64,000 nt of DNA from NCBI GenBank assembly GCA_919902995.1, contig CAKKSD010000032.1:20336-84335 (forward strand), read 5' to 3'. The notes below the pieces were generated by a model. The model searched no databases, was not told the origin of the DNA, and was given only the letters and a program-made list of their open reading frames with translations. Below, piece by piece: positions 1 to 14,904 of this stretch; positions within the stretch are counted from its first letter, which is position 1; each line of letters begins with the position of its first letter. Source of the DNA: Thermodesulfovibrionia bacterium. GTDB taxonomy: Bacteria; Nitrospirota; Thermodesulfovibrionia; JACRGW01. The position numbers and the translations under genes were made by a program.

Positions 1-643
1 TCTTCAATCCAACAGCGATCGCCTTTATAAGAAGACTGTCATGAGCATTTATGAAATTTCTCGAGAAATCAAAGTCTGTATGATATTCAGGCATGAAATA
101 TCTTGCATAGGGCCACTGGACAACAAATAGAATATTTCCATCTATTCCCTTCCTTTTCAACTCCGATAACTCTAAAATATGGCGGCTACCACGTTCTGTA
201 ACAGCATCAGGAAACATAGCAAGGGTATCTCCAAAGAGCGTGCAGGTCTTTACTTCAAGTACCAACTGTTTTCTACCTCTGCTCAGTAGAAAATCATACC
301 TGCTCTTTCCAAAACTCACTTCTCTCCTAATTAAATCAACATCCTCAAATCCAGGGATCCTCTTCTCTTTTATCAGTCCTTCAACAAGTGAATTTGTTAG
401 ATGGGTATGGAGGAGTATGGGGATACCGTCCCTTTCGGTTGCTATCACTGTGTAAGAGAGCTTATCTTTCGATGGATTCTTTAAAAGATATAATTCACTG
501 CCTGGAAGAAGAAATTCCCAGAGTCTTCCTGGATTGGGAAGATAGGCTTTTACAGTTTTACCTCTCAGAAAACATTCTACAGTAAATCTGTTCGGTCTGC
601 CCCTGAAGATTGCCTTTTCGAGGTTACCTTTAATCAGATGCAT
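1..643 (-). CDS. sfsA: Sugar fermentation stimulation protein SfsA (5' end of gene complete, C-terminus runs off window)
   Basis: Reverse-complement translation starts with ATG (complement of 641-643): MHLIKGNLEKAIFRGRPNRFTVE... Typical SfsA N-terminus; ~214 aa are visible. Not in the ORF track because it is open at the window edge. Confidence 0.7.
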   Translation of the reverse strand, partial: MHLIKGNLEKAIFRGRPNRFTVECFLRGKTVKAYLPNPGRLWEFLLPGSELYLLKNPSKDKLSYTVIATERDGIPILLHTHLTNSLVEGLIKEKRIPGFEDVDLIRREVSFGKSRYDFLLSRGRKQLVLEVKTCTLFGDTLAMFPDAVTERGSRHILELSELKRKGIDGNILFVVQWPYARYFMPEYHTDFDFSRNFINAHDSLLIKAIAVGLK

Positions 644-710
644 AATGGATTATACCCGAAAATAGACCCTTCACAAAATGTTAGCTAAAACCTATAATAA
701 AAGCGAAAAA

Positions 711-820
711 CGAGATTGCTTCGCTTCGCTCGCAATGACAAATACGAGGGAATTCATTGTGACACTTTATTAAGCGTCATTGCGAGGAGTCCCGATGAAT
801 CGGGACAACGAAGCAATCTA
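711..820. repeat. Composite palindromic repeat (family B: gagattgcttcg..cgcaatgaca / gtcattgcgag..cgaagcaatct) with an inner gtcccgat..atcgggac hairpin
   Basis: Nested inverted repeats read directly. Related copies at 4491-4575 (inverted arrangement), 30438-30508, 63123-63200 and a stem-swapped variant at 55625-55680. Confidence 0.7.
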
Positions 821-828
821 AATAGATT

Positions 829-1344
829 ATGCTAATCTCAAAAGAATATTTAGAGATAGTGAACAGGAACGGTAAAGTAATTGGTATTCGTCCAAGGGCT
901 GAAATACATGGAAATCCTGCGCTGATTCATAGGGTAGTCCATGTTCTTGTATTCAATGGTATAGGGGAACTCCTTCTCCAGAAACGTTCCATGAACAAGG
1001 ATGTAGCTCCCGGGAAATGGGATACCTCTGTTGGAGGTCATGTTAATCCCGGTGAGGAACTCCTTGAGGCGGTAAATCGTGAGATGAAGGAGGAGCTGGG
1101 AATAACAATATGTGAACCAGAGTTTCTCTATACATACATCCATTCAAATCCCTATGAGAGCGAGATCGTCCATACTTATTCTTGTATCTATGATAAAGAG
1201 GTATCTTTTAACAGGGATGAGATCGATGAGGTGAAGTTCTGGCGCCTTGAGGAGATAGAAGAGAATATCGGAAAGGGAATCTTTGGTGACAACTTTGAGG
1301 ATGAAATAGGGTATTATATAAGGACAGCGAGAAAGGGGAAGTGA
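829..1344 (+). CDS. NUDIX hydrolase
   Basis: Nudix box GGHVNPGEELLEAVNREMKEELGI (GX5EX7REUXEEXGU), 171 aa. Confidence 0.7.
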   Translation: MLISKEYLEIVNRNGKVIGIRPRAEIHGNPALIHRVVHVLVFNGIGELLLQKRSMNKDVAPGKWDTSVGGHVNPGEELLEAVNREMKEELGITICEPEFLYTYIHSNPYESEIVHTYSCIYDKEVSFNRDEIDEVKFWRLEEIEENIGKGIFGDNFEDEIGYYIRTARKGK

Positions 1345-1347
1345 ATA

Positions 1348-1689
1348 ATGAAGATAGATTATTATTCCTTCGGAAGAATTACTATCGATGGTAAAGATTA
1401 CTCCTCTGATGTAATAATCTATCCTGACAGAGTGGATTCATCCTGGTGGAGAAAAGAGGGACACAGGCTCGATATAGAGGATCTCAAAGATATTCTTGAG
1501 TCAAAATCAGAGGTCTTGATTGTTGGGACTGGAGCCTACGGAACGATGGTCGTCCCCGGAGAGACAGAGGAATTTCTGAAGAGAAAAGGAATCAAACTCA
1601 TCGCCCTGATGACAAAGGATGCCACAGAAACCTTTAATAAACTCTCAGGTTCTGGCAAGGTGATAGCGGCACTACACCTGACATGTTAA
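1348..1689 (+). CDS. Mth938-like domain protein (DUF498 family)
   Basis: 113 aa, YYSFGRITIDGKDYSSDVII ... LIVGTG pattern typical of Mth938-like fold proteins. Starts 4 nt after the Nudix stop. Confidence 0.55.
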   Translation: MKIDYYSFGRITIDGKDYSSDVIIYPDRVDSSWWRKEGHRLDIEDLKDILESKSEVLIVGTGAYGTMVVPGETEEFLKRKGIKLIALMTKDATETFNKLSGSGKVIAALHLTC

Positions 1690-1713
1690 GGGTTTCTTTA
1701 TTAGATAGAAAAA

Positions 1714-1783
1714 GATGCTGAAACGAGTTCAGCATGACAGAACAAGAGTCAACTTGTCACCCTGAACTTGTTTCAGGGTCTCC
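1714..1783. repeat. Pair of REP-like hairpins (gatgctgaaacgagttcagcatgac + gtcaccctgaacttgtttcagggtctcc)
   Basis: Two stem-loops with GTCA flank. The second overlaps the 3' end of hisH and encodes its last residues. Confidence 0.7.
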
Positions 1784-2452
1784 TGCGACTAACTCTCCGA
1801 ACCCCTTAAGAATCCTCAATCCTATCTCCTGGCTCTTCTCTGGGTGGAACTGAGTAGCAAAGATATTATCTTTCCATATCATAGATGTAAAGGTTATCCC
1901 ATAATCAGTTTTAGTTGCTATTACACTTTCATCCTCGGGTGCAACATAGTACGAGTGTACGAAGTAAAAGTAGGACTGATCGGGTATACTGTCAAGTATT
2001 GGAGGCCTCTTCTTTATATCTATGCTGTTCCAGCCCATGTGCGGTACTTTAAGGATAGAAGGTTCAAGGGAAAGACCTGACGGAAGGGATGGCACAGGTT
2101 CTTTCATCTTTTCAGGGAATCTAACTACCTTCCCCTTTATGATATTGAGCCCCTTACAGACCCCGAACTCCTCGCTTTCAGTGAATAGTATCTGAAGTCC
2201 GAGGCAGATGCCGAGATAGGGTTTACCTTTCTCTATAGATTTTATAACAGAATCTATAAGAGACCCCTTTTCGAGATTCCTCATACAATCAGAGAAGGCA
2301 CCAACCCCTGGTAGGACGATTCCGTTAGCATTAAGAATCACTTTTGGGTCACTCGTCACAATTGCGTTATAACCCACCTTCTCGAAGCCCTTCTCCACAG
2401 ACCTCAGGTTCCCCATCCCGTAATCAACGATTGCTATGAATTTCTCTTTCAT
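1757..2452 (-). CDS. hisH: Imidazole glycerol phosphate synthase glutamine amidotransferase subunit HisH
   Basis: 231 aa; class I GATase signatures GICLGLQ, HMGWN, FHPEKS, with the catalytic Cys in GICLG. Confidence 0.85.
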   Translation of the reverse strand: MKEKFIAIVDYGMGNLRSVEKGFEKVGYNAIVTSDPKVILNANGIVLPGVGAFSDCMRNLEKGSLIDSVIKSIEKGKPYLGICLGLQILFTESEEFGVCKGLNIIKGKVVRFPEKMKEPVPSLPSGLSLEPSILKVPHMGWNSIDIKKRPPILDSIPDQSYFYFVHSYYVAPEDESVIATKTDYGITFTSMIWKDNIFATQFHPEKSQEIGLRILKGFGELVAGDPETSSG

Positions 2453-2462
2453 ATAACTTTAT

Positions 2463-2812
2463 TGGTGGAGGCGGCGGGAATTGAACCCGCGTCCGGAAAC
2501 CTTCAGACATAGGTCTCTACATGCTTATTCCCGATATTGATTCTCGCCTCATCAAACGCCCCGGGAAAGGCTCCTGAGTCGGCCAGTCTGTTAATTCTTA
2601 CCTCTCTGCTACAGACAAAGCAGAAAGGCCAGCCTGATTTATGACGCCTTGGTGGCTGCTCAGACAACAACCATTAGGCGCGCTGCTTTAATTAAGCAGC
2701 GAGTGCCAGTTCTTGATTGGCAGTTAAATGTTTCCCATGTGTTTTACGAGTTTCATGGAACCTCGGCATGCAACCTATAACCTCTCTGTCCCCGTCGAAT
2801 CCTATCGCCCCC
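2463..2812 (-). ncRNA. ssrA: tmRNA (SsrA), tag peptide reading frame ANQELALAA-stop
   Basis: Minus strand 5' GGGGGCGATAGGATTCGACGGGG ... and 3' end GCGGGTTCAATTCCCGCCGCCTCCACCA (tRNA-Ala-like acceptor, CCA encoded). Internal ORF GCC AAT CAA GAA CTG GCA CTC GCT GCT TAA. Adjacent to smpB. Confidence 0.85.
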
Positions 2813-2829
2813 CTTTCTTTACTTATGTC

Positions 2830-2936
2830 ATACTGAACCCTGAGAGTGTCATGCCGAACTTGTTTCGGCATCTTATAATGAATACTTCTTCAAGACCCTG
2901 TCTACGACTCATAGAGAAACGAGTTCAGTGTGACAC
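2830..2936. repeat. REP-like composite element (gtcatgccgaacttgtttcggcatc ... ccctgtctacgactcatagagaaacgagttcagtgtgacac)
   Basis: Same family as 1714-1783, 28935-29006 and 63628-63699. Confidence 0.7.
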
Positions 2937-2952
2937 TTATAAGTCACGGATA

Positions 2953-3435
2953 TTACCTAACCATTTCTTTCAGTGCCTTTTCTGATTCCCTTCTAAGATC
3001 TTTTTCCTTAATAGCCTCCCTTTTATCAAATAGCTTCTTCCCCCTCGCCATGGCGATCTCTACTTTTGCCCTTCCCTTGGACAGGTATATCTTTAATGGG
3101 ATAAGGGTGAAACCCCTCTGTGTAACCTTTCCTGTTAGCTTCCTGATTTCTTCTTTATGCAAGAGGAGTTTCCTCGTCCTTAAAGGTTCATGGTTATAGA
3201 TATTCCCATGGCTGTAAGGACTAATATGACAGCCAATGAGAAATGGCTCTCCGTCCTTGATAATCGCATAACTATCCTTCAGGTTTGCCTTCCCCTCCCT
3301 CAGGGATTTTATCTCTGTCCCCTTAAGTTCGATTCCTGCCTCCAGGCTCTCCTCTATATGGTAGTCGTGGTAAGCCTTTTTGTTTGAACAGAGTACCCTT
3401 TCTTCTACTTTTTCTTTCATATTAAATGATACCAA
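2953..3435 (-). CDS. smpB: SsrA-binding protein SmpB
   Basis: 160 aa with [11 protein letters not shown] ... [14 protein letters not shown] ... GCHISPY. Canonical SmpB, next to tmRNA. The true start may be the internal MKEKVEE (around 3420). Confidence 0.85.
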
Positions 3436-3437
3436 AA

Positions 3438-4466
3438 TTATTGGGGTTTTACAATAACCTTCCCATCTTCTCCCTCCTGCCTTTCAATTTCAATATTTAT
3501 AGAGAGGAATTTTTTAATAAGCCAGATATTCGTGATGAGGTGCTGTGTTATCCTTGAGGTGGTGAAGGAAGACTCCCCTTTTGCCAAAGAAAGATAAGGA
3601 ACTATCTGATCGGCGAGTCTGGGGTCAAGGGCATTTTCTGAACGATGGAAGGCAAGGAACTCCTCACAGGCCTCCTTTGCAACATCTTCTGCTCTCTTTC
3701 TCCTTTCTCCGAGTGAAGAAAAGCCTGCGGTTAAATTCTCATACTCAGCATTTATAAAGAAAAATGTCCCTCTCCCTATCGAAGGGGCATCTATTAACTC
3801 TATCTCAGCATAAAGATTGCTCTCCTTCAGAATCCTCAAACCCTCTGCCTTCTGCCTTTCTGCTATTGATAAAGGAAGATTAGAAACAGCAGAGATTCCT
3901 CTTACCCTGACAAGTTTACCTCTCTCTCTAATGTCTAAAGTAGAAATCCCTTTTACAGGGTCTATCTCTGCCCCTGCTCTCCCTCCTCCCTTTGGGTACC
4001 AACCATATTTATCTATCCATAACCTTATCTTTAATCCAATCCTTTCAAGGATCGGAATAAATATAGTATCAAGATAATGGAATGGTGGGCTCCAGGGTAC
4101 ATGTGTCCCGCCGATAATCTCAATCCTCGATTTCTCAGCAGTAAGGCTTAGAGGCAACATAATAGCCTGCAGCACAAGGGATGTTGAACCGGCAGTTCCT
4201 ATATCAAAGAAATAATCTCCTCCTCTAACCTCTTTAGGGGAAAATATCAGATTCAAAGAGCCGATCCTATCCCCTTCAACTTGGGCATCAGATATCTCCT
4301 TGACTGCCTTTACAGAGGTAAGATGCTGGGGCTGGAGTCCGGGAACTTTTCTTCCCTTTCTGATATTGAATATTTCTATGGGTCTCCTGAGAAGACATGA
4401 CAGAGAAAGGGCGGTCCTCAGAATCTGCCCTCCTCCTTCACCGTAACTTCCGTCAATCCTGAGCAT
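3438..4466 (-). CDS. rtcA: RNA 3'-terminal phosphate cyclase RtcA
   Basis: 342 aa; N-terminus [23 protein letters not shown] is the RtcA signature. Confidence 0.85.
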
Positions 4467-4490
4467 AGCTATATTTTACCCTAATCCAGT

Positions 4491-4575
4491 CGAGATTGCT
4501 TCGTCATCCCGATATTTCGGGACTCCTCGCAATGACATTTTTTGCGTCATTGCGAGCCGAAGGCGAAGCAATCTT
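4491..4575. repeat. Family B palindromic repeat (cgagattgcttcg-tcatcccgatatttcgggactcc-tcgcaatgaca...gtcattgcgag..cgaagcaatct)
   Basis: Inverted-orientation counterpart of 711-820. Confidence 0.7.
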
Positions 4576-4633
4576 GTCTTTTATCGATTGATTTAGGAAT
4601 AAATGATTTATGTCATAGCCTTTCTGATGAAAT

Positions 4634-5089
4634 ATGTTATTATTCAAAATAAAAAGAGGAGGATCCATGGACAAAACATCAGTATGGTTCATAAAGGCTG
4701 GTATGATATATTTCCTGGTAAGTTCTATCGTAGGTGTGAGCATGGCAATCTGGCCAGAAGTCATAACATATTATAAGGCTGTTCATGCCCATCTTAACCT
4801 TCTCGGCTGGATGTCAATGATGATCTTTGGTATAGGTTATCATATACTTCCTAGGTTCAGCGGTAGACCCTTACACAGCCCTTCTATAGCGAGAACCCAG
4901 TTCTGGCTTGCAAATATCGGGCTAATTGGCATGTCATTCTCCTGGGCACTCATATACCACGGCAGGGCTACAGGTTATACGAGGATACTGCTAACTATCT
5001 TTGGTCTTATAGAGGTTACAGTTGTATTACTTTTCATCTATAATATGTGGAAGACGATCAAGGTGGTAGAACCAATGAAGACCGCCTGA
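4634..5089 (+). CDS. Hypothetical integral membrane protein (4 predicted TM, conserved His pairs)
   Basis: Hydrophobic 151 aa ORF, HAHLNLLGW...GYHILPRF. The start may be the internal MDKTSVW (4667). Family not recognised. Confidence 0.4.
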   Translation: MLLFKIKRGGSMDKTSVWFIKAGMIYFLVSSIVGVSMAIWPEVITYYKAVHAHLNLLGWMSMMIFGIGYHILPRFSGRPLHSPSIARTQFWLANIGLIGMSFSWALIYHGRATGYTRILLTIFGLIEVTVVLLFIYNMWKTIKVVEPMKTA

Positions 5090-5091
5090 TT

Positions 5092-5838
5092 CTACTTATT
5101 ATTAAGTCCGTATATCTCATTCATCTCTTCTGAATAGTTTCCGTTTCTGTCATAGATATAGAGCGGTTTCTCGACCTTCAGTCCTCCGCGTACCCCTTTT
5201 ACCCCCTCTACAAGGACCATCTTCGCCTCTACCCCTTCTTTAGAATGGATGAACCTCAGCCTTTTTGGTTCAAGCTGACATTTTTTCATCCTTGCGAAAA
5301 GCTCTTCCAGTCTGACAGGGTGATAGATAAGATCAAAACGTCCTTTATCCTTAAGGAGTAATCCACTAATTTCCAGAATATCATCAATGGTTACTTTTAT
5401 CTCATGCCTCGCTATTGCCTTTTCTTCTTCAGGACTGATGAGGCCGGTTCTTGCCCTCCTAAAAGGTGGATTTGATACGATTAGGTCAAAACATTTCTCT
5501 TTAAATACTTCCTTCAATTTTTTAATATCCTCTGTAATTACATCTACTCTTCCTTTGAGCTTATTCAGAATCACATTTTTTATGGCTAATCGCGCAAGGC
5601 CTTCCTGCAGTTCGATGGCATAAACCTTTGCCTCAGGATACCTTTTCGCAAGGAGTATCGAGATAATCCCGGAGCCTGCACCAAAATCGGATATATTCGT
5701 GCAGTGAGGAATCTGAACAAAGGAAAACAGGAGAAGGGCATCAACAGAGAAACGGTAGCCCGTCTTTTTCTGGATAATCTTTATATCCCTTATGCTGTCG
5801 AGTGTCTCTGTCTTATCTGAGATTTGCTCGTTTATCAT
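5092..5838 (-). CDS. tRNA (adenine-N6)-methyltransferase, TrmN6/YfiC-like class I SAM MTase
   Basis: 248 aa; DFGAGSGIISILLA (motif I) and NPPF (N6-adenine/N5-glutamine MTase motif IV). Confidence 0.65.
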   Translation of the reverse strand: MINEQISDKTETLDSIRDIKIIQKKTGYRFSVDALLLFSFVQIPHCTNISDFGAGSGIISILLAKRYPEAKVYAIELQEGLARLAIKNVILNKLKGRVDVITEDIKKLKEVFKEKCFDLIVSNPPFRRARTGLISPEEEKAIARHEIKVTIDDILEISGLLLKDKGRFDLIYHPVRLEELFARMKKCQLEPKRLRFIHSKEGVEAKMVLVEGVKGVRGGLKVEKPLYIYDRNGNYSEEMNEIYGLNNK

Positions 5839-5974
5839 AAATTCAATTTTTTAAAAATTATTTTAAATCTATCATTACTATTGGCAAAATACAAGATTAG
5901 ACATTTTCAATCAGTTTGGGAAGGAACTACCCTGCCCCGCAGGGTATCCTAATACAACTACAGAAACAAATATT

Positions 5975-6148
5975 GTCATTCCGGACATACATGCCCTCAG
6001 AGCCATTAATCGAGGGATGCGGAATCTAGGTATTCAGCTTATACGTCATGCCCGAAGTTTTTAATCGGGCATCCAGTTCTTTGATCTTCTGGTTCCCCGT
6101 TTTCGCGGGGACGACGTCTGGATTCCCGATTAAGAACTGCGGGAATGA
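5975..6148. repeat. Cluster of three REP-like hairpins (gtcattccgga..gatgcggaatct; gtcatgcccga..tcgggcatccag; ctggattcccg..gcgggaatgat)
   Basis: Family A: GTCAT + 7-nt stem + spacer + complementary stem + ATCCAG. Stems differ between copies but stay complementary. Confidence 0.7.
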
Positions 6149-6375
6149 TATCTCAGTTGAAACCCTATGGCAAAACCACAAGGAATTATCAAGTTAAATA
6201 GATAAAATTGGTTAATTATTTATTGCCATAATTAATAAATCTAATATTATAATTTTAGTTGACATTAATTATGGATATGTGATACTAATAAATTACAGAA
6301 AGGAGGTGGAAATTTTAAATTTTAATGAATTAAGTCATAGACTATATATGTCTTAAGAAAGGATGGTGGTTTTTT

Positions 6376-7266
6376 ATGAAGCGGTTGAGATTATTCCTGA
6401 TCTTACTTTTTATTTCATTTCCATTAGTAGCTTCAGGTGCAGAAAAGGCAAAGACCGTTGATGAACTTGCAAAGATGTACGATGTAAGCTCCTGCAAAAG
6501 GTGTCACAAGAAGCAATTTGCTGAATGGGAAAAGTCCATACATGCCAAGTCCCTTATAGGTACCGGCCGTACCCTTGGAGGGTTTAAGGGATTCATTACT
6601 GGCGGTCTTATGGGAGCTTTCACAAAGTCAGGTGTAAAAGATGTGAAGGATATAAAGATGGATCACTTTGCGATGTGTTTTAAGTGCCATCTACCCCAGG
6701 CGCTAACAAGCGGTACTGATGAACTCGCCAGACAACTCGCAAAGGCCTTTGTCGATGCTGACAGGGAGACACTCGGAAAGTTGAATATCAACTGTAATGT
6801 CTGTCATACCACTAAGGCCCTCATTCATAAATGGCAGGACGGCGAACCTGAAAAGAATGTCACATATGGACCTGCTTTAGAAGGTGACCATGACGACAAG
6901 ATGACACCTAAAATGAAAAAGAGTGTCGTTATGAAAGAGTCTGTTTTCTGCGGACAGTGCCACGGTACAGGGCCTAACCTTGAATTCCCTCAGCCATCGC
7001 AATGTGGAACGATCTATGGAAGCTATCTCCATGCCTATATCCCTGCAGGTGGTACAAAGACCTGTCAGGACTGCCACATGAAAGGTGGCGACAAGGGACA
7101 TCTCATGCCTGCATATCGTGACCCTGATATGCGGAAATGGGGAATGAATGTAGAAGTCGAGACACTCGGTTATAAGTTCCTTCCAAAGGCAGGGGATCTG
7201 GTTCCAACAGCTGTGGTTACAGTAAAAATGACCAATAAGGCTGGTCATAGAATCCCTGATGGGTGA
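6376..7266 (+). CDS. Periplasmic multiheme cytochrome c (5 CXXCH), signal peptide
   Basis: CKRCH, CFKCH, CNVCH, CGQCH, CQDCH; N-terminal hydrophobic leader; strong upstream RBS aggaggtgg/aggatggtgg. Confidence 0.8.
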   Translation: MKRLRLFLILLFISFPLVASGAEKAKTVDELAKMYDVSSCKRCHKKQFAEWEKSIHAKSLIGTGRTLGGFKGFITGGLMGAFTKSGVKDVKDIKMDHFAMCFKCHLPQALTSGTDELARQLAKAFVDADRETLGKLNINCNVCHTTKALIHKWQDGEPEKNVTYGPALEGDHDDKMTPKMKKSVVMKESVFCGQCHGTGPNLEFPQPSQCGTIYGSYLHAYIPAGGTKTCQDCHMKGGDKGHLMPAYRDPDMRKWGMNVEVETLGYKFLPKAGDLVPTAVVTVKMTNKAGHRIPDG

Positions 7267-7293
7267 CCATCCGCACAGAGGCTGGTCCTGGAA

Positions 7294-7644
7294 GTGACCG
7301 CTAAAACAAAGGATGGTAAAGAGATATTCAGGGACTCAAAGATCTATATGCCACAAGCAACTAACAGTCGTGGTGATGCCATGGTCTATGGTGCCCATTT
7401 CAAGATGGGATATAGTCGTGATACAAGCCTGCAACCACTTAAGACGAAGGTAGAGACCTTTGAGATCAAGTTCCCCTATGAAGATGTAGAAAAAGAAAAA
7501 GGTAAACCCAAGGTCAGGGAAATAAAGGCTAAAGAAATGGATGTGACTGTAGAACTACGTTATCAACTTGACCCTGCTCCAGGTGAACCTGATAAAGACA
7601 GCTTCAGTTACTATAAAGATACCAAAAAGGTAACAATTCAGTAG
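7294..7644 (+). CDS. Downstream ORF in the same frame as the cytochrome, separated only by one TGA (possible C-terminal portion via readthrough, or a separate small protein)
   Basis: 6376 and 7294 are in the same frame. A single TGA at 7264-7266 in context UGAC. No convincing RBS ahead of ATG 7294. A terminator follows at 7663-7698. Confidence 0.35.
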   Translation: MTAKTKDGKEIFRDSKIYMPQATNSRGDAMVYGAHFKMGYSRDTSLQPLKTKVETFEIKFPYEDVEKEKGKPKVREIKAKEMDVTVELRYQLDPAPGEPDKDSFSYYKDTKKVTIQ

Positions 7645-7662
7645 AAATTAATCCTCAGAAAA

Positions 7663-7698
7663 AGCCCACCCCCAGCTTACCGGGGTGGGTTTTTTTAT
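7663..7698 (+). terminator. Rho-independent terminator
   Basis: gcccacccc-agcttacc-ggggtgggt followed by ttttttt. Confidence 0.7.
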
Positions 7699-7811
7699 TC
7701 CCTACCCAATATATATCTTGACAAATAGACAGAGGCAAATATAATGGAGCATTATCAACTTATGTTGACTGTTGGATCTGTATTTCAAAATCCTTTTCAG
7801 ACGGAGATATA

Positions 7812-7952
7812 ATGAATTTCATAGATAATCTGAAGATTAAAAACAAGCTTATCCTTATGCTTGTCTTTCCAATCGCAGGTCTAATTTATTTCTCACTCGG
7901 TGGTATATGGGATAAATCCAAATTAACGAGCGAGATGGTAAGCTTTATGTAG
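7812..7952 (+). other. Short ORF resembling an MCP/sensor N-terminal signal-anchor (46 aa), possible gene remnant
   Basis: MNFIDNLKIKNKLILMLVFPIAGLIYFSLGGIW..., good RBS ggaga 4 nt upstream, truncated after 46 codons. The adjacent frame continues YVDLIRTAKEKNAEM... until the 8017 start. Confidence 0.3.
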
Positions 7953-8016
7953 ACCTCATCAGAACAGCCAAAGAGAAGAATGCAGAGATGGTAACAGACT
8001 CGTTAGGAGACAATAT

Positions 8017-10170
8017 ATGATAAGAGGTCTATTCTCAAAAAGTTTGAGTCTTAAGGTTGCAATCACGGTAATAGCTGTTCTGACTGTGCTGGGCGGTGGT
8101 TCGTTTGTCTATATATACAATAAGATACAGAACCAGCTTATAGATGCCCAGAAAAGGGAGGCATTGACGCTCGCTTCTACCCTGAACAGTAGCCTTTCCG
8201 CCATGATGTTAAAGGGCGGAGGACTGAACCCTGAGGAGATACAGGTCATCTTTATAGCGTTATTAGAGAGAAAGGAGGTAAAAAATGCTGTTGTATACGG
8301 CCACAACGGCCGACGGGTATTTACAAATCATGAATCAGAGAGAAATACCATTATAAACAGAGATAAAGAGGAAGAATGTCTTGTCTGCCACAGGCTTTCG
8401 CCTGACAAGATGCCGCTTACGCAGTTTATAGATCTCCCAGGCAAGGGGAGAATTCTGCGCGCAGTGGCTCCGATAGTCAAGAAAGAGGCATGTCTCCAGT
8501 GTCATTTCACCGGTTCAAACATGGGTTTTGTTCTGCCCAATGAAAAATATCGCGGCATGGTGCTCGTTGACATGGAAACAAAAGAGATGGAATCCCAGAT
8601 GTTTGCAATCCTTGTGGCGGGAATAGCGACATATCTTGCCATAATATTAGCCGTATATTTTGTTTTGAGGAGGCTTGTAACACGACCTCTAAATGATATT
8701 GTAAATTCTGTTACTAAGATAGCTACCGGTGACCTGACTGCAGACATTAAGATTAGTTCAAAGGACGAGGTTGGTACCTTGGCTGTTGCCTTTAAGGAAA
8801 TGGCATCAAACTTAAGCGAAATACTTAAAAAAACAAAAACATTATTTACAAATGTAGATTCAGCAGTAAAGAAGATTGTAGATGGGGCAACCAGCATAAG
8901 GAGGGGTTCTGAAGACCAGGCAACCGCCATGACTGATGTCTCATTTTCTGTGGAAGGGCTTCATAAGATGGCACTCGACATTGCTAATGGTATGGAGCAG
9001 TCTTTGAAGCTATCTGAAAAGACATCGTCTTCTATCCTTGAGATGGCTCTATCTATTGAAGAGGTAGATGGAAATGTGGCTGAAATTACTTTCGCTGTTG
9101 AGGATACATCAACCTCTATAGAAGAGATCGCAAGCTCCCTCAAAGAAGTTGCTATTGGGACAGATAATATATCCAAAGGCGCAGACGAAATAGCCTCATC
9201 GCTTATCCAGATAGATACATCCGCAATGGAGATAGAGAGACATTCAGGTGAGGGAGCAGGACTTTCGAATGAAGTTGCGAGGGAAGGTGAGATGGGTCTA
9301 AAGGCTGTAGGACGTACCCATGCAGGGATGGAAACAATAAAGGGAGAAGTCAAAAAACTTGCAACGGTTATAGAAGAACTCGGTCAGAGGTCAAAGGAAA
9401 TTGGAAAGATCTTGAATGTAATTGATGATGTAGCAGTAGAAACCAACCTACTCGCATTGAATGCCACAATCCTCGCCGCCCAGGCAGGAGAACATGGTAA
9501 GGGTTTTGGTGTTGTAGCACATGAGATAAGGGAACTATCGGAGAGAACCTCTGCTTCAACAAAGGAGATTACTGGTATAATATCGGGTATTCAGAGCCAG
9601 ATAGGAAAGGCAGTGGTATCGGTTGAGGAAACGATTGCAAAGGTTACAGAGGGAGAAAAACTCTCTATAGACACAATCGGGATACTTGAAGGGATAACGG
9701 GAAGATTCAAGACATTCCAGGATATGAGTCTTAAGATTTCAAGGGCAACACAAGAACAAACAAGGGGGAGTAAGGAAGTAACACAGAACATGGAAGACAT
9801 TACTGCCACCATTCACCAGATTGCAAGGGCAACGCAGGAACAGTCACAGGGAAGTACCCAGATAGTAAATTCTTTAGAAAATATGAAAGAACTTATATCG
9901 CATCTTAAAAAGTTAACTTCTGAACAGGCAGAAGGCAGCAAGGTGATAGCATCTAATACGGAAAAGATGATGAGGTTTATCCAGGATATAAATGTTCTCT
10001 CTTCTGACCAGGAAAAGGAAAGCCAGAGGATATCTGCTGCTGTGATGGAAACCACGACTATCGCAGGTGCAGGAATGGAGAATACGAGTTACTTAGAAGA
10101 GATAGTTAATGTTCTGAAAAAGGAGGTCGAGACATTAAAAGAGGGGTTGGAACAGTTTAGATTGGAATAA
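8017..10170 (+). CDS. Methyl-accepting chemotaxis protein with periplasmic di-haem (2x CXXCH) sensor domain, HAMP and long MCP signalling domain
   Basis: TM1 LKVAITVIAVLTVLGGGSFVYIY, periplasmic CLVCHR and CLQCHF, TM2, HAMP, MCP signature LLALNATILAAQAGEHGKGFGVVAHEIRELSERT. Confidence 0.85.
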   Translation: MIRGLFSKSLSLKVAITVIAVLTVLGGGSFVYIYNKIQNQLIDAQKREALTLASTLNSSLSAMMLKGGGLNPEEIQVIFIALLERKEVKNAVVYGHNGRRVFTNHESERNTIINRDKEEECLVCHRLSPDKMPLTQFIDLPGKGRILRAVAPIVKKEACLQCHFTGSNMGFVLPNEKYRGMVLVDMETKEMESQMFAILVAGIATYLAIILAVYFVLRRLVTRPLNDIVNSVTKIATGDLTADIKISSKDEVGTLAVAFKEMASNLSEILKKTKTLFTNVDSAVKKIVDGATSIRRGSEDQATAMTDVSFSVEGLHKMALDIANGMEQSLKLSEKTSSSILEMALSIEEVDGNVAEITFAVEDTSTSIEEIASSLKEVAIGTDNISKGADEIASSLIQIDTSAMEIERHSGEGAGLSNEVAREGEMGLKAVGRTHAGMETIKGEVKKLATVIEELGQRSKEIGKILNVIDDVAVETNLLALNATILAAQAGEHGKGFGVVAHEIRELSERTSASTKEITGIISGIQSQIGKAVVSVEETIAKVTEGEKLSIDTIGILEGITGRFKTFQDMSLKISRATQEQTRGSKEVTQNMEDITATIHQIARATQEQSQGSTQIVNSLENMKELISHLKKLTSEQAEGSKVIASNTEKMMRFIQDINVLSSDQEKESQRISAAVMETTTIAGAGMENTSYLEEIVNVLKKEVETLKEGLEQFRLE

Positions 10171-10236
10171 CTACTTAATTTATAAAGGGCTAATGCCTTC
10201 AGTAAACCGTAAAAAGAGGAGAAGGAGGATACTGAG

Positions 10237-10674
10237 ATGAATGAGTTAAACAGGAATTATCTTAACGATCTGAAAAACGATCATAAGATGGTTATAAAAC
10301 TCTTAGATGATATTAAAGGTTCTACTCAGACAAAGGATATCCAGGGAATTACATCCTTTATGGAACAGCTTAAAAATGGGCTCCTTGCACATTTGAAAAA
10401 AGAAGATGATAAGATATATGCAGACCTACTTAATGTTGCTAAAGAAAGGAATATTGAACTGGTAACAATAACAATAAATACATTCTCTACCGCAATGAAG
10501 GGAATAGCAGCAAGGGTTCTTAAGTTCTTCGATAAATATCCTAATAAAGACGAGATCGCAAGGCATGCAGCAGAGTTTTATAAGGATTTTCAGGAGGTCT
10601 ATGAAGATCTCCACAAGAGGGTTGATCGGGAAGAAAAGGTTTTATATCCGATGTATGAGAAGTATTGCTGCTGA
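10237..10674 (+). CDS. Hemerythrin-like (HHE cation-binding) domain protein
   Basis: 145 aa with spaced His/Glu pairs (DHKMV, AHLKKEDD, RHAAEF, HKRVDREEKVLYP). Family call from pattern only. Confidence 0.5.
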   Translation: MNELNRNYLNDLKNDHKMVIKLLDDIKGSTQTKDIQGITSFMEQLKNGLLAHLKKEDDKIYADLLNVAKERNIELVTITINTFSTAMKGIAARVLKFFDKYPNKDEIARHAAEFYKDFQEVYEDLHKRVDREEKVLYPMYEKYCC

Positions 10675-10831
10675 GATATCTTCCTGAAACCACCATTTGT
10701 ATTGAATATTTTTTGAGGAGTGATAGATACCTTTCTTTGTCTTCGTCATTTAAAAAGACTTTTTCTCTGTTGTTGCCTCTTTGAACGACAAAACTGTGCG
10801 GTGGCTATTAGCCATCCGCACGAGTGATTTG

Positions 10832-11056
10832 TTAGGCACTTTTCCGAATCAATTTATTATCAAGGTCAAGTTCGTAGGAGAGGATTGTTTTAATGTTCAT
10901 CTTCTTAGAAGCATTGAGTATTTCTATGCCAACTATTTTATCTTCAGATGTCGTATCTAAATTAACACCTTCAGATAACTCAACAACTCCATCAGGTTTC
11001 TGGTTTCCTAATTTGATATAGATTGCGTCAATATTGGCGTCATAATGCACTCTCAT
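10832..11056 (-). CDS. DUF2283 family protein (putative antitoxin-like partner)
   Basis: 74 aa, YDANIDAIYIKL motif. Overlaps upstream DUF4258 gene by 4 nt. Confidence 0.55.
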   Translation of the reverse strand: MRVHYDANIDAIYIKLGNQKPDGVVELSEGVNLDTTSEDKIVGIEILNASKKMNIKTILSYELDLDNKLIRKSA

Positions 11057-11280
11057 TTTTTCCTCCCTTTCTTCAAAGGATAGTTTGTTATTACCGTTAC
11101 TGTATCCCCTTTGACGGAGACAACAATTTTCAATGGATATTGAAATCCCGTAATATTTCTTACGATCTCATGTTCGCCCTGGTGTAAATTCATGGTTTTT
11201 AAAATGTCTGTTATTATTGTTTCGGAAATCTCAAAAAGTTTTGCCCGCCTTTTAGCATGGCGGGAGAATTTTATCTCCAT
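11053..11280 (-). CDS. DUF4258 family protein (putative toxin-like partner)
   Basis: 75 aa, MEIKFSRHAKRRAKLFEISE N-terminus typical of DUF4258. Paired with DUF2283. Confidence 0.55.
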   Translation of the reverse strand: MEIKFSRHAKRRAKLFEISETIITDILKTMNLHQGEHEIVRNITGFQYPLKIVVSVKGDTVTVITNYPLKKGRKK

Positions 11281-11620
11281 CAGATATTACCCTTCTAAAT
11301 TATAGCTTTTTTAACAAAAAAGAGGTAATTTTATCGCTACTGCATCCCGGCAGCTCTACGTTTACATAATTGCTAACATTATATATCATGCAATTGAATA
11401 GTTTTGTACAAGTCTATTACTAAAATTGGCCTTAGTCAAGAAAAATTGCTTGAAAATAGCTAAGAATGCTGTATAGAATTAAATATTTTAATATTAGACA
11501 TAAGTTATATAATAATAACAATGATTATCTGTACTCATATTGCTTCAAAAAATATTCTGGGAGTGCGAAGCCCACTGGATCAGACAGGATAAAGAAACTC
11601 TTGCAAGAATAAGTTAAGTT

Positions 11621-12340
11621 ATGAAAAAAATATTCCTATTCTTTATCTTTCTCTCTGTGTTAAGCTTTATCTATCTCCTCTCCTCCCCCAATATCTCCAG
11701 ACTCAAGAAGGAAAACCCCAAGAAGACATCCTTTATGGAATACAGGGAAAGGGTGTCGAAAAAGAAGGGGAGGAGTTATAAGATAACTCAGATATGGGTT
11801 CCCCTTAACATCGTTCCATCACATCTTATTAAGGCGGTCCTTATCGCAGAGGACGATAAGTTCTGGAGCCATGAGGGCTTTGACTTTGAGGCAATTAAGA
11901 AGGCTATAGAGAAGGATATCAAGAAAGGGAAGTTTGCCTTTGGAGGAAGCACAATAACACAACAGCTCGCCAGGAACCTCTACCTCACACCTGAAAAAGC
12001 ACTCCTCAGAAAGATCAAAGAGGCCATAATTACATGGCGTATTGAAAGGGTCATCACTAAAAAGAGGATCCTTGAACTTTATCTCAATGTTGTCGAATGG
12101 GGAGACGGGATATTCGGAATTGAAGCAGCATCAAGGTATTACTATAACAAACCCTCTTCTGAGTTGAACCCGGAAGAATCGGCAAGATTGGTAGCGGTAT
12201 TACCAAATCCGAAGAGATATTCACCAACAGGTGAATCGAAATATATTGAGATGAGGGCAAGACTGATCCTTGACATTATGAAAATGAGAGGGATCATACC
12301 GCCAGAATATGAGGAGATTATACCCCTATTCAATTTTTAA
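11621..12340 (+). CDS. mtgA: Monofunctional biosynthetic peptidoglycan transglycosylase MtgA
   Basis: Signal anchor, then glycosyltransferase family 51 motifs EDDKFWSHEGFD, GGSTITQQLARNLYL, RKIKEAIITWRIE. Confidence 0.85.
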   Translation: MKKIFLFFIFLSVLSFIYLLSSPNISRLKKENPKKTSFMEYRERVSKKKGRSYKITQIWVPLNIVPSHLIKAVLIAEDDKFWSHEGFDFEAIKKAIEKDIKKGKFAFGGSTITQQLARNLYLTPEKALLRKIKEAIITWRIERVITKKRILELYLNVVEWGDGIFGIEAASRYYYNKPSSELNPEESARLVAVLPNPKRYSPTGESKYIEMRARLILDIMKMRGIIPPEYEEIIPLFNF

Positions 12341-12361
12341 AGTTGCAATTGTGAAAGAAGG

Positions 12362-13057
12362 ATGTATAATTTAGATACCTCTATGGAAGAAGACCATATC
12401 GAAATAGATTCTGTTCTGGTCGATTCGAGAATCTTTGAAACCCCTTACACATGTGATGTTAAGGGTTATAGATGTAATTCCACTTGCTGTTATAGGGGAT
12501 GTATCATCAGACCCTCTGAGGTTAAGAGGATAGAAAAACACATTTCTGGTATCCTTTCCTATCTGAGCCCCGAAAATAGAGAGGCGATAAAGGACAATGG
12601 TTCTTTTGTTGCCAGATGCCCTATCCAGTGTCCCGATGGTTGTGATATCCATCCAGAAGAGGCAACCTCAGCCAGGAGGTTTTTTAAGGAAGATCTTGAT
12701 TTCAGATGTACACTTCTCTTCAACGATCTATGTGTTTTTATTTACACAAATCATGAAGGCCTGAAATACTGCGCCATCCACTCTTATGCACTGGCTAACA
12801 GGATAAAAGTCGAGGATATCAAGAAGATAGATTGCATCCAGTACCCACTGATGGTATATAGAAGTAATGGGAAAAAGGTACTTACTATTCAGGAAGTCCC
12901 ATATCTATCTCATATACCCTGTATGAATGACAGAAAGGGTGAACCAATGTATAAGGGACTCCAGTCTGCAGTCGAAATTCTACTCGGCAAGGAATTCAAT
13001 CAAAAACTTCAAGCCTATGGCAGGCGATATATTCGTAAAACTAAAAAACAAAAATGA
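12362..13057 (+). CDS. Cysteine-rich protein, YkgJ/UPF0153-like putative Fe-S or zinc-chelating domain
   Basis: CNSTCCYRGC, CPIQCPDGC, C..LC..IY...C pattern. Family call tentative. Confidence 0.4.
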   Translation: MYNLDTSMEEDHIEIDSVLVDSRIFETPYTCDVKGYRCNSTCCYRGCIIRPSEVKRIEKHISGILSYLSPENREAIKDNGSFVARCPIQCPDGCDIHPEEATSARRFFKEDLDFRCTLLFNDLCVFIYTNHEGLKYCAIHSYALANRIKVEDIKKIDCIQYPLMVYRSNGKKVLTIQEVPYLSHIPCMNDRKGEPMYKGLQSAVEILLGKEFNQKLQAYGRRYIRKTKKQK

Positions 13058-13122
13058 GCTGGCAAGTCTTCACCCTCCGAGTAAAGTGAAGGCTATCACC
13101 CGGAATAGTCGAAGTAAAATAA

Positions 13123-14052
13123 ATGAAAATAATTAAGGATATTGAAGGCATAAAGGAAATATTCCAGTACCCTATCCTGACTATTGGAAATTTTGATGGT
13201 TTCCATTTAGGTCATAAGGCTATCTTCAAGGAGATGGTGAGTCATGCCAAGGAGATTGGCGGAACTACTATCGCCTTTACCTTTGAGCCTCATCCCTTAA
13301 AGGTACTCTCGCCGGAAAAACAATTGAGACTCCTCAGCACATTTGAAGAAAAAGTGAGACTGATCGAAGCCGAGGGAATCGATATCCTTCTATGCCCTGC
13401 CTTTACAAAAGACTTTGCCGATCAACATCCGAAGGATTTTGTAAAGAATATTCTTTATAGAAAGCTCAGAGTTTATGAGGTATTCGTGGGGTACGACTAT
13501 GCCTTTGGAAAAGGAAGGAGAGGTACTGTCGAATCCCTTAAAGAAATGGCAAAAGAGTTTGATTTTAAGGTCGTAGTTATTAAACCCGTAAAAATAGGAA
13601 AAGAGGTGGTAAGCAGCTCTAAGATCAGAGACCTTCTTTCTGAAGGTAAGGTGAAGGAGGCATCTCTTTTTTTGGGGAGGCCTTTTTCTTTAGAAGGTAC
13701 AGTTATAAGAGGTGAAGGCAGAGGTGCTACTCTCCTCGGTTTTCCTACCGCCAATATAAACATAAATAATCCTGAACTCCTTATTCCAAAGGAAGGCATA
13801 TATGCCGTTAACGTTATTTTTAATAGTAATACCTTCAAAGGGGCAGCAAATATTGGCTATAAACCTACCTTTGGAAATGGTAATCCTAGCCTTGAAGTCC
13901 ATATCCTGAATTTCAGTGGTGACCTTCTCGGAAAGTACCTGAGGATTAACTTTATTGAGAGACTCAGAGATGAGACAACCTTTCCAAATCCTGAAGCTCT
14001 ATCCGAACAGATTAAAAGGGATGTCGAATCTGTAAGAAATGTTTTTCGATAA
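13123..14052 (+). CDS. ribF: Bifunctional riboflavin kinase / FMN adenylyltransferase RibF
   Basis: 309 aa; GNFDGFHLGHKAIF (nucleotidyltransferase) and C-terminal riboflavin kinase GRPFSLEGTVIRGEGRG...GFPTANI. Confidence 0.9.
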   Translation: MKIIKDIEGIKEIFQYPILTIGNFDGFHLGHKAIFKEMVSHAKEIGGTTIAFTFEPHPLKVLSPEKQLRLLSTFEEKVRLIEAEGIDILLCPAFTKDFADQHPKDFVKNILYRKLRVYEVFVGYDYAFGKGRRGTVESLKEMAKEFDFKVVVIKPVKIGKEVVSSSKIRDLLSEGKVKEASLFLGRPFSLEGTVIRGEGRGATLLGFPTANININNPELLIPKEGIYAVNVIFNSNTFKGAANIGYKPTFGNGNPSLEVHILNFSGDLLGKYLRINFIERLRDETTFPNPEALSEQIKRDVESVRNVFR

Positions 14053-14062
14053 AGGAGTTAAG

Positions 14063-14359
14063 ATGAAGAAGTTATTTGCTATATCTTTATTTTTGGGGTT
14101 TATAGTCTATCCGTATTTATCTGAACCTTCAGACACATTTGATAACCATTTTGATAAAGGTTTGACTTATTACCAAAAGAGGAATTTTAAGATGGCCATA
14201 AAGGAGTTTGATGAAGCCCTCAAGATTGACCCCAATGTAGCTAAGGTTTACTACTATATGGGTTATGCAAAATATAAGAAAAAAGACTTCAAGGGTGCTA
14301 TTAAGGATTTTAACAAGGTCTATAGCCTTGATCAAAATTATTCCCCATTCCTAAAGTAG
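14063..14359 (+). CDS. TPR-repeat lipoprotein/secreted protein
   Basis: Signal peptide MKKLFAISLFLGFIV, then two TPR units (AIKEFDEALKIDPNVAKVYYYMGYA..). RBS aaaggag ahead of ATG 14063. Confidence 0.6.
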   Translation: MKKLFAISLFLGFIVYPYLSEPSDTFDNHFDKGLTYYQKRNFKMAIKEFDEALKIDPNVAKVYYYMGYAKYKKKDFKGAIKDFNKVYSLDQNYSPFLK

Positions 14360-14387
14360 GAAGGATGGGGGAAACTACATTTTTTTC

Positions 14388-14474
14388 TGGTGCCGAAGGG
14401 GGGAGTCGAACCCCCACAGGGTTACCCCCACTAGACCCTGAACCTAGCGTGTCTACCAATTCCACCACTTCGGC
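14388..14474 (-). tRNA. tRNA-Leu (anticodon CAG), long variable arm
   Basis: Reverse complement GCCGAAGTGGTGGAATTGGTAGACACGCTAGGTTCAGGGTCTAGTGGGGGTAACCCTGTGGGGGTTCGACTCCCCCCTTCGGCACCA. Anticodon loop UUCAGGG; CCA encoded. Confidence 0.85.
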
Positions 14475-14555
14475 TTTATTGAATCTTATCCTCTTATCCT
14501 CCTAAAGTCAATCTCATCATTACAATTTACCTCTTATTATCCCGGATTTCTCTTA

Positions 14556-14880: not shown

Positions 14881-14904
14881 CCTGTATTTTCATAGGAGTT
14901 GAAA

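Follow-up and report, generated by a model that had tools for sequence, protein, structure and literature searches.

CGTC-tagged hairpin repeats in the genome of a groundwater Nitrospirota bacterium and their possible link to Ssn-family GIY-YIG nucleases

Several intergenic hairpins lie close together at positions 5975-6148 of a 64,000-nucleotide stretch of DNA from a Thermodesulfovibrionia bacterium of the phylum Nitrospirota (contig CAKKSD010000032.1 of assembly GCA_919902995.1, forward-strand positions 20,336 to 84,335; this whole stretch is hereafter called the window), and similar hairpins recur along the window. To what kind of repeat do they belong, and what maintains and redistributes them? 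The initial annotation regarded them as resembling repetitive extragenic palindromes (REPs) and bacterial interspersed mosaic elements (BIMEs), mobilized by a REP-associated tyrosine transposase (RAYT) or IS200-type HUH enzyme, or else as a structured RNA module. We found that they are CGTC-tagged REPs, a class that includes the NTS/dRS3 repeats of Neisseria, and thus a kind of repeat already described. In the reading that we favour and hold to be probable, they are of the SRM type and would be read by a GIY-YIG nuclease of the Ssn family, with turnover by nicking and recombination.

Hand curation combined with a covariance model yielded 26 full and 3 partial units in 12 clusters across the window, in line with the 'at least 20 copies' first reported, and units are present at every site that had been listed. 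All 12 clusters are intergenic, in the ~11% of the window without open reading frames (ORFs). The segment at 5975-6148 comprises three units, at 5974-6026 (+), 6044-6073 (+) and 6121-6150 (-), and a central untagged hairpin. The units read Y-GTC, an 8-bp stem beginning with A(T), a loop, the complementary arm and an invariant C. The fixed flanks noticed at first are therefore real, but their register differs from the proposed GTCA followed by a 7-nt stem: the A is the first base of the stem, which has 8 bp, and the tag is YGTC.

Two architectures can be distinguished. Class I units have simple stems (ATGCTGAA, ATGCCGAA, ACCCTGAA, ATTCCGCA, ATTCCTGC or ATGCCCGA) with loops of 4, 5 or 9 nt; the loop has 4-5 nt in eight of the ten short units and 9 nt in the other two, and 26-32 nt in four further units. 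The tail is CCAG after ATTCC and ATGCCCGA stems, and CTC, CTT or CCC after GAA-type stems, its first base, C, being invariant. What had been described as 'long spacer' copies are in fact short units carrying nested inserts of 16-32 nt: four are class I units with an extra 21-32 nt in the loop or arm, and three copies have an identical insert, the 16-nt palindrome TCTAYGAGTCGTAGAC, within the 3' arm. Likewise, the copies first grouped around a conserved gagcgaagcgaa core represent a second architecture, class II, in which a 5-bp outer stem encloses a GAG...GAA internal loop and an inner mini-hairpin that varies and is often GCGAAGC. The class II outer stems covary as well (ATTGC/GCAAT, ATTCC/GGAAT and ACCCT/AGGGT). 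GCGNAGC or GCGAAGC, GCGAAAGC and GCGNNAGC are described in PMC13037366 as cores of exceptionally stable DNA mini-hairpins. Folded as single-stranded DNA, class I units reach z scores of -4.2 to -5.5.

The number of such hairpins exceeds chance expectation. A GTC followed immediately by a perfect 8-bp hairpin was found 16 times in the window, whose G+C content is 41.5%; 2.15 were expected, and none of 40 Markov shuffles gave more than 6. The full signature, GTC-A...T-C with at most one mismatch, occurred 12 times where 2.86 were expected and 100 dinucleotide shuffles yielded at most 8, and 11 of these 12 matches are true copies. Both scans replaced a looser definition (GTCA, stem of at least 6 bp, loop of up to 70 nt) that was too noisy, with 39 matches for 21 expected. 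Of the eight perfect 8-bp hairpins of the window with loops of 3-12 nt, all have a Y preceding the GTC, a stem that opens with A and a C following it, and seven have a T at stem position 2. In a control set of 983 kb of loci from SmpB relatives, mostly of other phyla, such hairpins are about nine times rarer (0.14 per 10 kb, versus 1.25 in the window), and only one in 14 bears the signature. In the alignment of units, the invariant or nearly invariant columns are the GTC, the first A of the stem and the T-C after it. A covariance model built from copies outside the window recovered the known window units and added those at 30441-30469, 30479-30504 and 55637-55662.

Covariation of the stems was confirmed on independent copies. 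We searched metagenomes with the pattern GTCANNCNGAACTNGTTTCNGNNTC, in which the tag, the loop and part of the stem are set while three stem pairs may vary, and collected 167 matches in 120 loci from very diverse habitats. The three free positions are all complementary in 156 of the 167 (93%), versus 1.6% by chance, with at least 11 stem variants, and the base preceding the GTC, although unconstrained by the pattern, is Y in 90% of the copies. In a formal count, double changes affect six of the eight stem pairs, in an alignment that had been selected for perfect stems. The initial claim that stems always stay self-complementary was right as to covariation and too absolute otherwise, as the stem of 6121-6150 has one mismatch. 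Among 252 perfect units, doublets are tail-to-tail in 71 cases, head-to-head in 19 and head-to-tail in nine; most of them are thus arranged tail-to-tail, and not head-to-head as had been proposed.

These features match the definition of the CGTC REP superfamily of Di Nocera, De Gregorio and Rocco (2013, PMC3733652), which comprises the families CGTC-1 to -4, the Neisseria repeats being CGTC-1. In that survey, the units have a CGTC or TGTC tag, an 8-9 bp stem starting with A-T pairs, a 4-5 nt loop and a CCA tail, and mostly form inverted heterodimers. The window units share the unpaired CGTC/TGTC tag, the 8-bp stem starting with A-T and, in part, the loop of 4-5 nt (most short units) and the CCA-type tail (the ATTCC subfamily); they too are intergenic, of many subtypes in one genome and arranged in inverted, mostly heterodimeric doublets, with no adjacent transposase. 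They differ by their host, as Nitrospirota is not among the five host phyla listed in 2013 (PMC3733652), by several stems, loops (CTYGT, or 9 nt) and tails (CTC, CTT), by the second architecture with its 5-bp outer stem and GAGCGAAGCGAA core, and by the nested inserts of 16-32 nt. Other elements with a CGTC end, including the Rickettsia palindromic elements, can also supply coding sequence, as unit 1755-1780 does at the end of a GATase ORF; the Rickettsia elements, of about 100-150 bp, are often found in-frame in genes, unlike the intergenic window units of 25-53 nt.

A more distant Nitrospirota metagenome-assembled genome (MAG), MFD02199.bin.2.126, harbours at 13410-15531 of the locus that we collected canonical NTS-like units, CGTC ATTCCCGC gaaa GCGGGAAT CCAT, together with variants with 9-nt loops, and doublets are present on both sides of a DHFR-like gene. 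The latter was considered as a partner gene and discarded because it does not code for a nuclease.

The YGTC tag and the match to the superfamily definition identify the repeats as CGTC REPs and not as GTAG REPs mobilized by RAYTs. It is nonetheless worth asking whether they are classical REPs or REPINs, mobilized in trans by a RAYT (TnpA-REP, an HUH Y1 enzyme) or an IS200/IS605 transposase encoded elsewhere in the genome. The likeness to the E. coli BIMEs and Pseudomonas REPINs is genuine: hairpins with an unpaired 5' guide tetranucleotide at their foot, inverted doublets, intergenic location, high copy number, instability between relatives and a partner gene that is itself bracketed by repeats. 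Di Nocera et al. left open the movement of CGTC repeats by RAYTs or other transposases (PMC3733652). However, the tag is YGTC in all intact units rather than GTAG or GTGG, and the 2013 survey found no association with tyrosine transposases and no such gene flanked by CGTC units, although many of the hosts encode them (PMC3733652). Pfam analysis of about 60 ORFs detected no transposase in the window, as initially stated, and no Y1 transposase (PF01797) in particular; the locus of the sister genome compared below also has neither a RAYT nor any other transposase. A tblastn search of about 2 Mb of repeat-rich loci with IS200 TnpA and the E. coli RAYT also gave no match, a weak test given the approximate query sequences. 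Lastly, the genes that we found bracketed by units code for GIY-YIG and not HUH proteins. The REP/BIME likeness, the fixed unpaired flanks and the covarying stems of the initial annotation therefore stand, and the mobilization by RAYT or IS200 enzymes that it proposed is very improbable.

The Neisseria member of the class provides another candidate. SsnA, a single-domain GIY-YIG protein, binds and cuts NTS (CGTCATTCCCGCGMAVGCGGGAATCYRG, which contains dRS3) exclusively as single-stranded DNA and on a single strand; binding depends most on the C right after the palindrome, and cleavage is controlled by the three nucleotides that precede the palindrome (Chenal 2025, PMC11893778). In the window, the positions that correspond to these determinants of cleavage and binding are the invariant or nearly invariant GTC and 3' C. 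The ssnA gene itself is flanked by repeats, and most bacterial ssn homologues are flanked by related SRM hairpins (PMC11893778). Like NTS/dRS3 and SRM, the window units are oriented hairpins preceded by a conserved GTC and directly followed by a C, occurring in clusters rarely within genes, and the NTS consensus shares 17 positions with the ATTCC...GGAATCCAG units of the window. The host is a free-living groundwater bacterium, in contrast with the symbionts or pathogens of the NTS/SRM systems.

Units of the window types bracket genes of the Ssn family in other organisms. Among the 120 metagenome loci, which were fetched by the repeat alone, four have a small GIY-YIG ORF next to the units, and the flanked genes code for 92-114 residues. 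In L123 (96 residues) and L145 (114 residues), the arrangement is unit(+)-gene-unit(-) within about 80 nt. The gene of L192 (100 residues) is similarly bracketed by ATTCCTGC units, found by eye, whose stem is that of the window unit at 34469, and L118 has a partial GIY-YIG gene with units downstream only. The units of L123, L145 and L118 belong to the CTYGT-loop class. In L214, a GIY-YIG gene is also bracketed by units on both sides. Pfam analysis of the three complete proteins (L123, L145 and L192) detected PF01541 only, and a profile built from them collected at least 7,957 relatives; among the 120 listed, nearly all have 95-96 residues. The top match of this profile (P0003), picked by its protein alone, is bracketed likewise.

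The L123 protein shares 48.9% identity (E 3e-21) with the one ORF of N. gonorrhoeae that matches it, which lies among NTS repeats (eight SRM-pattern matches and 11 perfect CGTC hairpins in 3.3 kb) and, based on this context, is the SsnA orthologue. The spacing of the Tyr, Tyr and Glu residues is the same, at positions 8, 19 and 66 in the L123 protein and 6, 17 and 64 in SsnA. Among seven named genomes with homologues, the unit(+)-gene-unit(-) arrangement was found in three (Azospirillum, Aeromonas and Novosphingobium); Photobacterium has units on one side only, and N. gonorrhoeae has NTS repeats on both sides. The hosts of homologues in PLSDB (Rhizobium, Sinorhizobium, Sphingobium, Novosphingobium and Azospirillum) overlap with the CGTC-REP hosts of 2013. 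Searches of NCBIfam and of PDB sequences assigned the flanked proteins to no specific family, UPF0213 structures matching only with E values of 0.006-0.06, and viral contigs contained only four weak relatives of the GIY-YIG profile. The occurrence of one relative (P0116) in several contexts was considered as cassette movement and rejected, as the difference is an IS1595 insertion upstream.

We also noted two features around these genes. A GC-rich, terminator-like hairpin of ~35 nt (GAGGGCGAAGCC..GGCTTCGCCCTC) is found on both sides of the unit-ssn-unit block in L123 (3260-3300 and 3740-3780) and in L214 and L221 (about 1380-1420 and 1850-1890), which suggests insertion into, or duplication of, a palindromic target. 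In L145, tandem arrays of half-units with a 21-nt period (GTGAAACAAGTTCAGGGTGAC) directly adjoin the GIY-YIG gene at 150-250 and 650-800.

When close relatives are compared, the units behave like unstable or mobile DNA. Among genomes, the nearest is the MAG 'Nitrospirae bacterium NC_groundwater_1761_Pr3_B-0.1um_42_9', whose SmpB is 98% identical, and near-identical contigs come from Hainich groundwater metagenomes. The locus of this sister MAG (L008) is syntenic with window positions 1-13645 at 88-95% identity (roughly 93%), and every break in the alignment falls at a REP cluster. Clusters 714-818 and 4494-4573 are absent from it, with 23 unrelated nucleotides in place of the latter doublet; conversely, it has a tail-to-tail doublet of its own, of 125 nt, after the tmRNA gene. 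The doublet at 1714-1780 is inverted relative to its flanks between the two genomes. At 2847-2872, both arms differ from those of the orthologous unit (ATGCCGAA/TTCGGCAT versus ATGCTGAA/TTCAGCAT) and pairing is kept. The sister orthologue of 2894-2935 is a plain unit, GTCACCCTGAACTCGTTTCAGGGTC, and the 16-nt palindrome present in the window only, which destroys the hairpin, is thus an indel. This comparison of orthologous loci, which had been proposed as a check of mobility, reveals presence or absence, inversion and nested indels.

Changes are also found between strains of the Hainich population. Look-ups with CheW, the thiamine-binding protein and a response regulator returned mostly contigs of the same strain, and only L228 and L225 were informative. 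In L228, one flank is 100% identical (663/663 nt) and the other 99.6%, and the interior of the 27803-27923 doublet is restructured. In L225, ten of 12 differences from the window are in or beside the 63565-63757 cluster. Two metagenome contigs break off at a REP unit or no more than about 21 nt from one, and for a third the distance is about 64 nt. The region specific to the sister MAG (4280-7605) was considered as a mobilizing locus and discarded, since its genes are ABC-transporter-like and code for no mobilizing enzyme.

Several sequence features at these sites deserve mention. The head-to-head doublet at 4480-4590 lies inside a longer imperfect palindrome (CCTAAATCAATCGA...TCGACTGGATTAGG). 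The corresponding empty site of the sister MAG (8934-8958) holds the palindrome CCTTAAGG, which recalls the reported CGTC dimers inserted in palindromes. Unit 55637-55662 is bracketed by a 32-nt direct duplication (55592-55623 and 55679-55710, 78% identical) that includes the ribosome-binding site of purH; this duplication could represent a long target duplication generated by insertion. Finally, a GATase ORF (1757-2452) runs into unit 1755-1780, from which it takes its last ~12 codons and its stop; homology with the sister MAG stops at 1794.

Based on these data, we propose the following scenario. When the DNA becomes single-stranded, in replication, transformation or repair, a class I unit would fold into its 8-bp hairpin, and a class II unit would form a 5-bp stem carrying a GCGAAGC-type mini-hairpin. 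Stems would covary because their shape alone counts. A small, single-domain GIY-YIG nuclease of the Ssn family would read the unpaired GTC and the 3' C, keeping both fixed; it would bind the hairpin and the 3' C and nick the same strand just upstream. Nicking and recombination at the units would make them hot spots of insertion, deletion, inversion and nested insertion, and the units would spread and persist mainly as inverted, tail-to-tail heterodimers. The existence of a cognate Ssn protein in this organism, the cutting of the units and a turnover driven by Ssn rather than by plain recombination are what we infer here.

Several observations weigh against this scenario. No GIY-YIG gene was found in the 64-kb window or in 13 kb of the sister MAG. 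The evidence for the association comes from other organisms, some of them distant, and the flanked proteins are putative members of the cd10448 family. In the loci examined, bracketing involves class I units only, with no class II unit next to an ssn gene, and class II units fold weakly (z about -0.7 with nearest-neighbour parameters). The published SRM pattern, HGTCWYN(0-2)YYVSBRHN(0-5)WNVSBRGN(0-2)RNCYNB, has no match in the window (0.21 in shuffles), and our script for it finds the eight matches in 3.3 kb around the gonococcal gene; strict SRM membership by that pattern thus fails. A hand check indicated that the pattern also fails on the unit that flanks the GIY-YIG gene of L192. Furthermore, Ssn is known as a nuclease and not as a transposase, and recombination between repeats alone could explain the turnover.

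In another explanation, suggested for CGTC repeats by Di Nocera et al. (PMC3733652), the units would be relics, spread by an enzyme since lost and now subject only to slippage, recombination and decay, with no present function. Degenerate or broken units are indeed present, with tATC or TGAC tags (tATC, tATC and TGAC in three window units), the disrupted unit at 2894-2935 and half-units, and no cognate gene was found in 77 kb. Nevertheless, most class I stems are perfect and their flanking nucleotides invariant, and the change of both arms in one orthologous unit preserved pairing. The occurrence of a structural variant within a population of 99.6-100% identity also argues for ongoing activity rather than slow decay. 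We thus consider it unlikely that the units are mere relics.

Could selection act instead on RNA, the units being 3' stabilizers, attenuators or terminators, and their repetition reflecting convergent or copied regulatory modules? Roles in mRNA stabilization and transcription termination are known for E. coli REPs, CTTTTTC follows unit 1714-1739, and the genes on either side are co-directional for nine of the 12 clusters and convergent for one. The two others, 4494-4573 and 5974-6150, separate divergent genes, so that a 3' end would not be expected there, and a T-run follows only one of 11 strict units. A terminator does not need unpaired, strand-specific bases such as the conserved GTC and C. 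As the units form inverted pairs, each strand carries one of each orientation. In addition, the class II cores GCGAAGC and GCGAAAGC are motifs of exceptionally stable DNA mini-hairpins (PMC13037366), and SsnA does not bind RNA (PMC11893778). A search of the window with Rfam 15 at the gathering threshold detected the tmRNA, one tRNA and a single CRISPR-DR7 match, and nothing at the repeats. The structured RNA module of the initial annotation is therefore unsupported, and we regard selection at the RNA level as quite improbable as the main explanation; an RNA-level role could exist as a secondary effect.

Returning to the nuclease scenario, the doublets may have a more specific origin. They resemble unit-ssn-unit cassettes without the gene, because two units bracket ssn genes in the same arrangement elsewhere: tail-to-tail is the orientation of the units around the gene when it is present, and where doublets in this orientation are spaced by 291-387 nt, the gap agrees with the length of an ssn gene. 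NTS-ssnA-NTS has already been hypothesized to be a domesticated mobile element (PMC11893778). We tentatively consider, without expecting it, that the tail-to-tail doublets are non-autonomous, gene-less derivatives of such cassettes, still inserted, excised or inverted by a GIY-YIG single-stranded DNA nuclease. If so, a second route of REP proliferation would exist, independent of HUH enzymes. This would answer the question raised in 2013 of what moves CGTC REPs, for which the 2025 Ssn study offers only a hypothesis. The classes missed by the SRM pattern (CTYGT loops, GCGAAGC core) would correspond to new Ssn specificities, and insertion would have left its footprints in the duplicated flanks of 32-40 nt and in the nested palindromic inserts.

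The individual units are as follows, the assignments being read from the sequence itself with the additional support given in brackets. At the left end of the window, the cluster absent from the sister MAG consists of a class II unit, TGTC ATTGCGAG CGAAGC GAAGCAAT C, at 714-740 (-; covariance-model match 711-740), a partial half-unit, TGTCACAATGAAT, at 752-764 (-), and a class II unit, CGTC ATTGCGAG with the inner hairpin TCCCGA/TCGGGA and GAAGCAAT C, at 775-818 (+). The doublet that follows is formed of two class I units, TGTC ATGCTGAA ctcgt TTCAGCAT C at 1714-1739 (-; covariance-model score 43.6 bits, DNA fold z -4.9) and TGTC ACCCTGAA cttgt TTCAGGGT C at 1755-1780 (+; 44 bits). The third cluster starts with a partial unit, TGTCATACTGAAC..., at 2826-2846 (+), absent from the sister MAG, followed by the class I unit TGTC ATGCCGAA cttgt TTCGGCAT C at 2847-2872 (+; hairpin scans and covariance model). 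The class I unit at 2894-2935 (-; ACACTGAA...AGGGT) has its 3' arm split by the 16-nt palindrome TCTATGAGTCGTAGAC, and its fold z is +0.42. At 4494-4537 (-; inverted-repeat scan) and 4545-4573 (+; covariance model and folding) are two class II units, ATTGCGAG with the inner hairpin TCCCGA/TCGGGA and GAAGCAAT C, and CGTC ATTGCGAG CCGAAGGC GAAGCAAT C, respectively.

In the cluster that drew attention to the family, the unit at 5974-6026 (+; signature scan) is of class I, ATTCCGGA/TGCGGAAT, with a 32-nt loop and one mismatch. Its neighbour at 6044-6073 (+; hairpin scans, z -5.1) reads CGTC ATGCCCGA agtttttaa TCGGGCAT C cag. An untagged GC hairpin at 6093-6112 separates it from its tail-to-tail partner at 6121-6150 (-; inverted-repeat scan), a class I unit with a degenerate tag and one mismatch, tATC ATTCCCGC agttcttaa TCGGGAAT C cag. 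The next doublet opens with a degenerate class I unit, tATC ATTCCTGC gaaa ACAGAAAT C, at 27803-27827 (+), for which strain contig L228 has an intact long-loop unit, ATTCCTGC/GCAGGAAT. It encloses two untagged hairpins at 27837-27891 (TCCCCGC gaaa GCGGGGA and TTCCCG ttttca CGGGAA), both missing in L228, and closes with the class I unit TGTC ATTCCGCA cttga TGCGGAAT C cag at 27898-27923 (-; hairpin scans, covariance model and folding), within which contig L229 ends. Another doublet pairs the class I unit TGTC ATGCTGAA cttgt TTCAGCAT C at 28933-28958 (+; hairpin scans and covariance model) with a class I ACCCTGAA unit carrying the 16-nt palindromic insert at 28966-29007 (-). Two class II units follow, TGTC ATTGCGAG gcggagcc AAAGCAAT C at 30441-30469 (-; covariance model) and CGTC ATTCCGAG CGAAGC GAGGAAT C at 30479-30504 (+; covariance model, 18.2 bits, E 0.03).

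The class I unit at 34469-34493 (+; hairpin scans and folding), TGTC ATTCCTGC ggaa GCAGGAAT C cag, is the one that shares its stem with the GIY-YIG-flanking units of L192. Next to it, at 34512-34558 (-; hairpin scans), the class I unit ATTCCGC(C)/TGCGGAAT is longer than the unit at 27898 by a 21-nt insert, and contig L006 stops 21 nt away from it. A perfect 9-bp hairpin without a GTC tag, CCCTGTAGC/GCTACAGGG at 34575-34600, lies directly downstream of cheW, in a range initially included with the repeats; it is probably the cheW terminator and outside the repeat family. Further along are the class II unit TGTC ACCCTGAG CGAAGC GAAGGGT C at 55637-55662 (+; covariance model), between the copies of the 32-nt duplication, and a degenerate remnant at 57357-57385 (-), a palindrome similar to the 16-mer adjoining CAGGGT. 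At the right end, a class II pair is formed by TGTC ATTGCGAG with the inner hairpin CACCC/GGGTG and GCAAT C at 63121-63155 (+; hairpin scan and covariance model), and by a unit with a degenerate TGAC tag, ATTGCGAG gcgaatccg AAGCAAT C, at 63169-63197 (-; hairpin scan). The last cluster has four class I units: ATTCCGCA/TGCGGAAT with a 32-nt loop, which is the 27898 unit with a 27-nt insert, at 63565-63617 (+; hairpin scans); a ACCCTGAA unit with the 16-nt palindromic insert at 63627-63668 (+; covariance model); TGTC ATGCCGAA cttgt TTCGGCAT C at 63675-63700 (-), the top covariance-model match with 47.3 bits; and ATTCCTGC/GCAGGAAA with a 27-nt loop at 63710-63757 (-; hairpin scan), where the differences of L225 concentrate.

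The genes of the window are housekeeping genes, including those for tmRNA, smpB, mreBCD, PBP2, rodA, a chemotaxis cluster, purH, purD and cytochrome c maturation. Other sequence features were found among them. A radical-SAM/DUF2344 ORF (49832-52486) contains, in frame between the two domains assigned by Pfam, a perfect 29-nt inverted repeat (51693-51779, 87 nt in total) that resembles a palindromic insertion into the gene; no second copy was found in the window or in the fetched loci. A second, AT-rich repeat family with the core TTTAGCATTGCAAATTTT occurs at 44239-44299, 55285-55334, 57261-57300 and 57422-57461, two of its copies enclosing the intergenic stretch that immediately precedes a 23S rRNA intervening-sequence protein gene (57473-57838). 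The chemotaxis cluster has, in two of its intergenic regions (39335-39399 and 40940-41014), inverted repeats composed of GATACATGAT-like words, which may be operator arrays. The single CRISPR-DR7 match (49762-49798, ending in GATTGAAAC), between rodA and the radical-SAM gene, has no array and no cas genes nearby and is thus probably a chance match or an orphan repeat. Lastly, adjacent small genes for DUF2283 and DUF4258 proteins (10832-11280) have an arrangement typical of a toxin-antitoxin pair.

These findings leave the current understanding of the repeat class unchanged. They extend this poorly understood, widespread class to groundwater Nitrospirota, a phylum that was not in the 2013 survey, and they indicate that the SRM search pattern misses whole subfamilies that still bracket Ssn-type genes. 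For assembly and annotation, the clusters matter because they break metagenome contigs and can extend or terminate ORFs. The natural variants described here (presence or absence, inversion, the 16-nt nested insert and the structural variant) provide material for testing Ssn-driven REP turnover, and each new hairpin class is a candidate site for a new sequence-specific single-stranded DNA nuclease.

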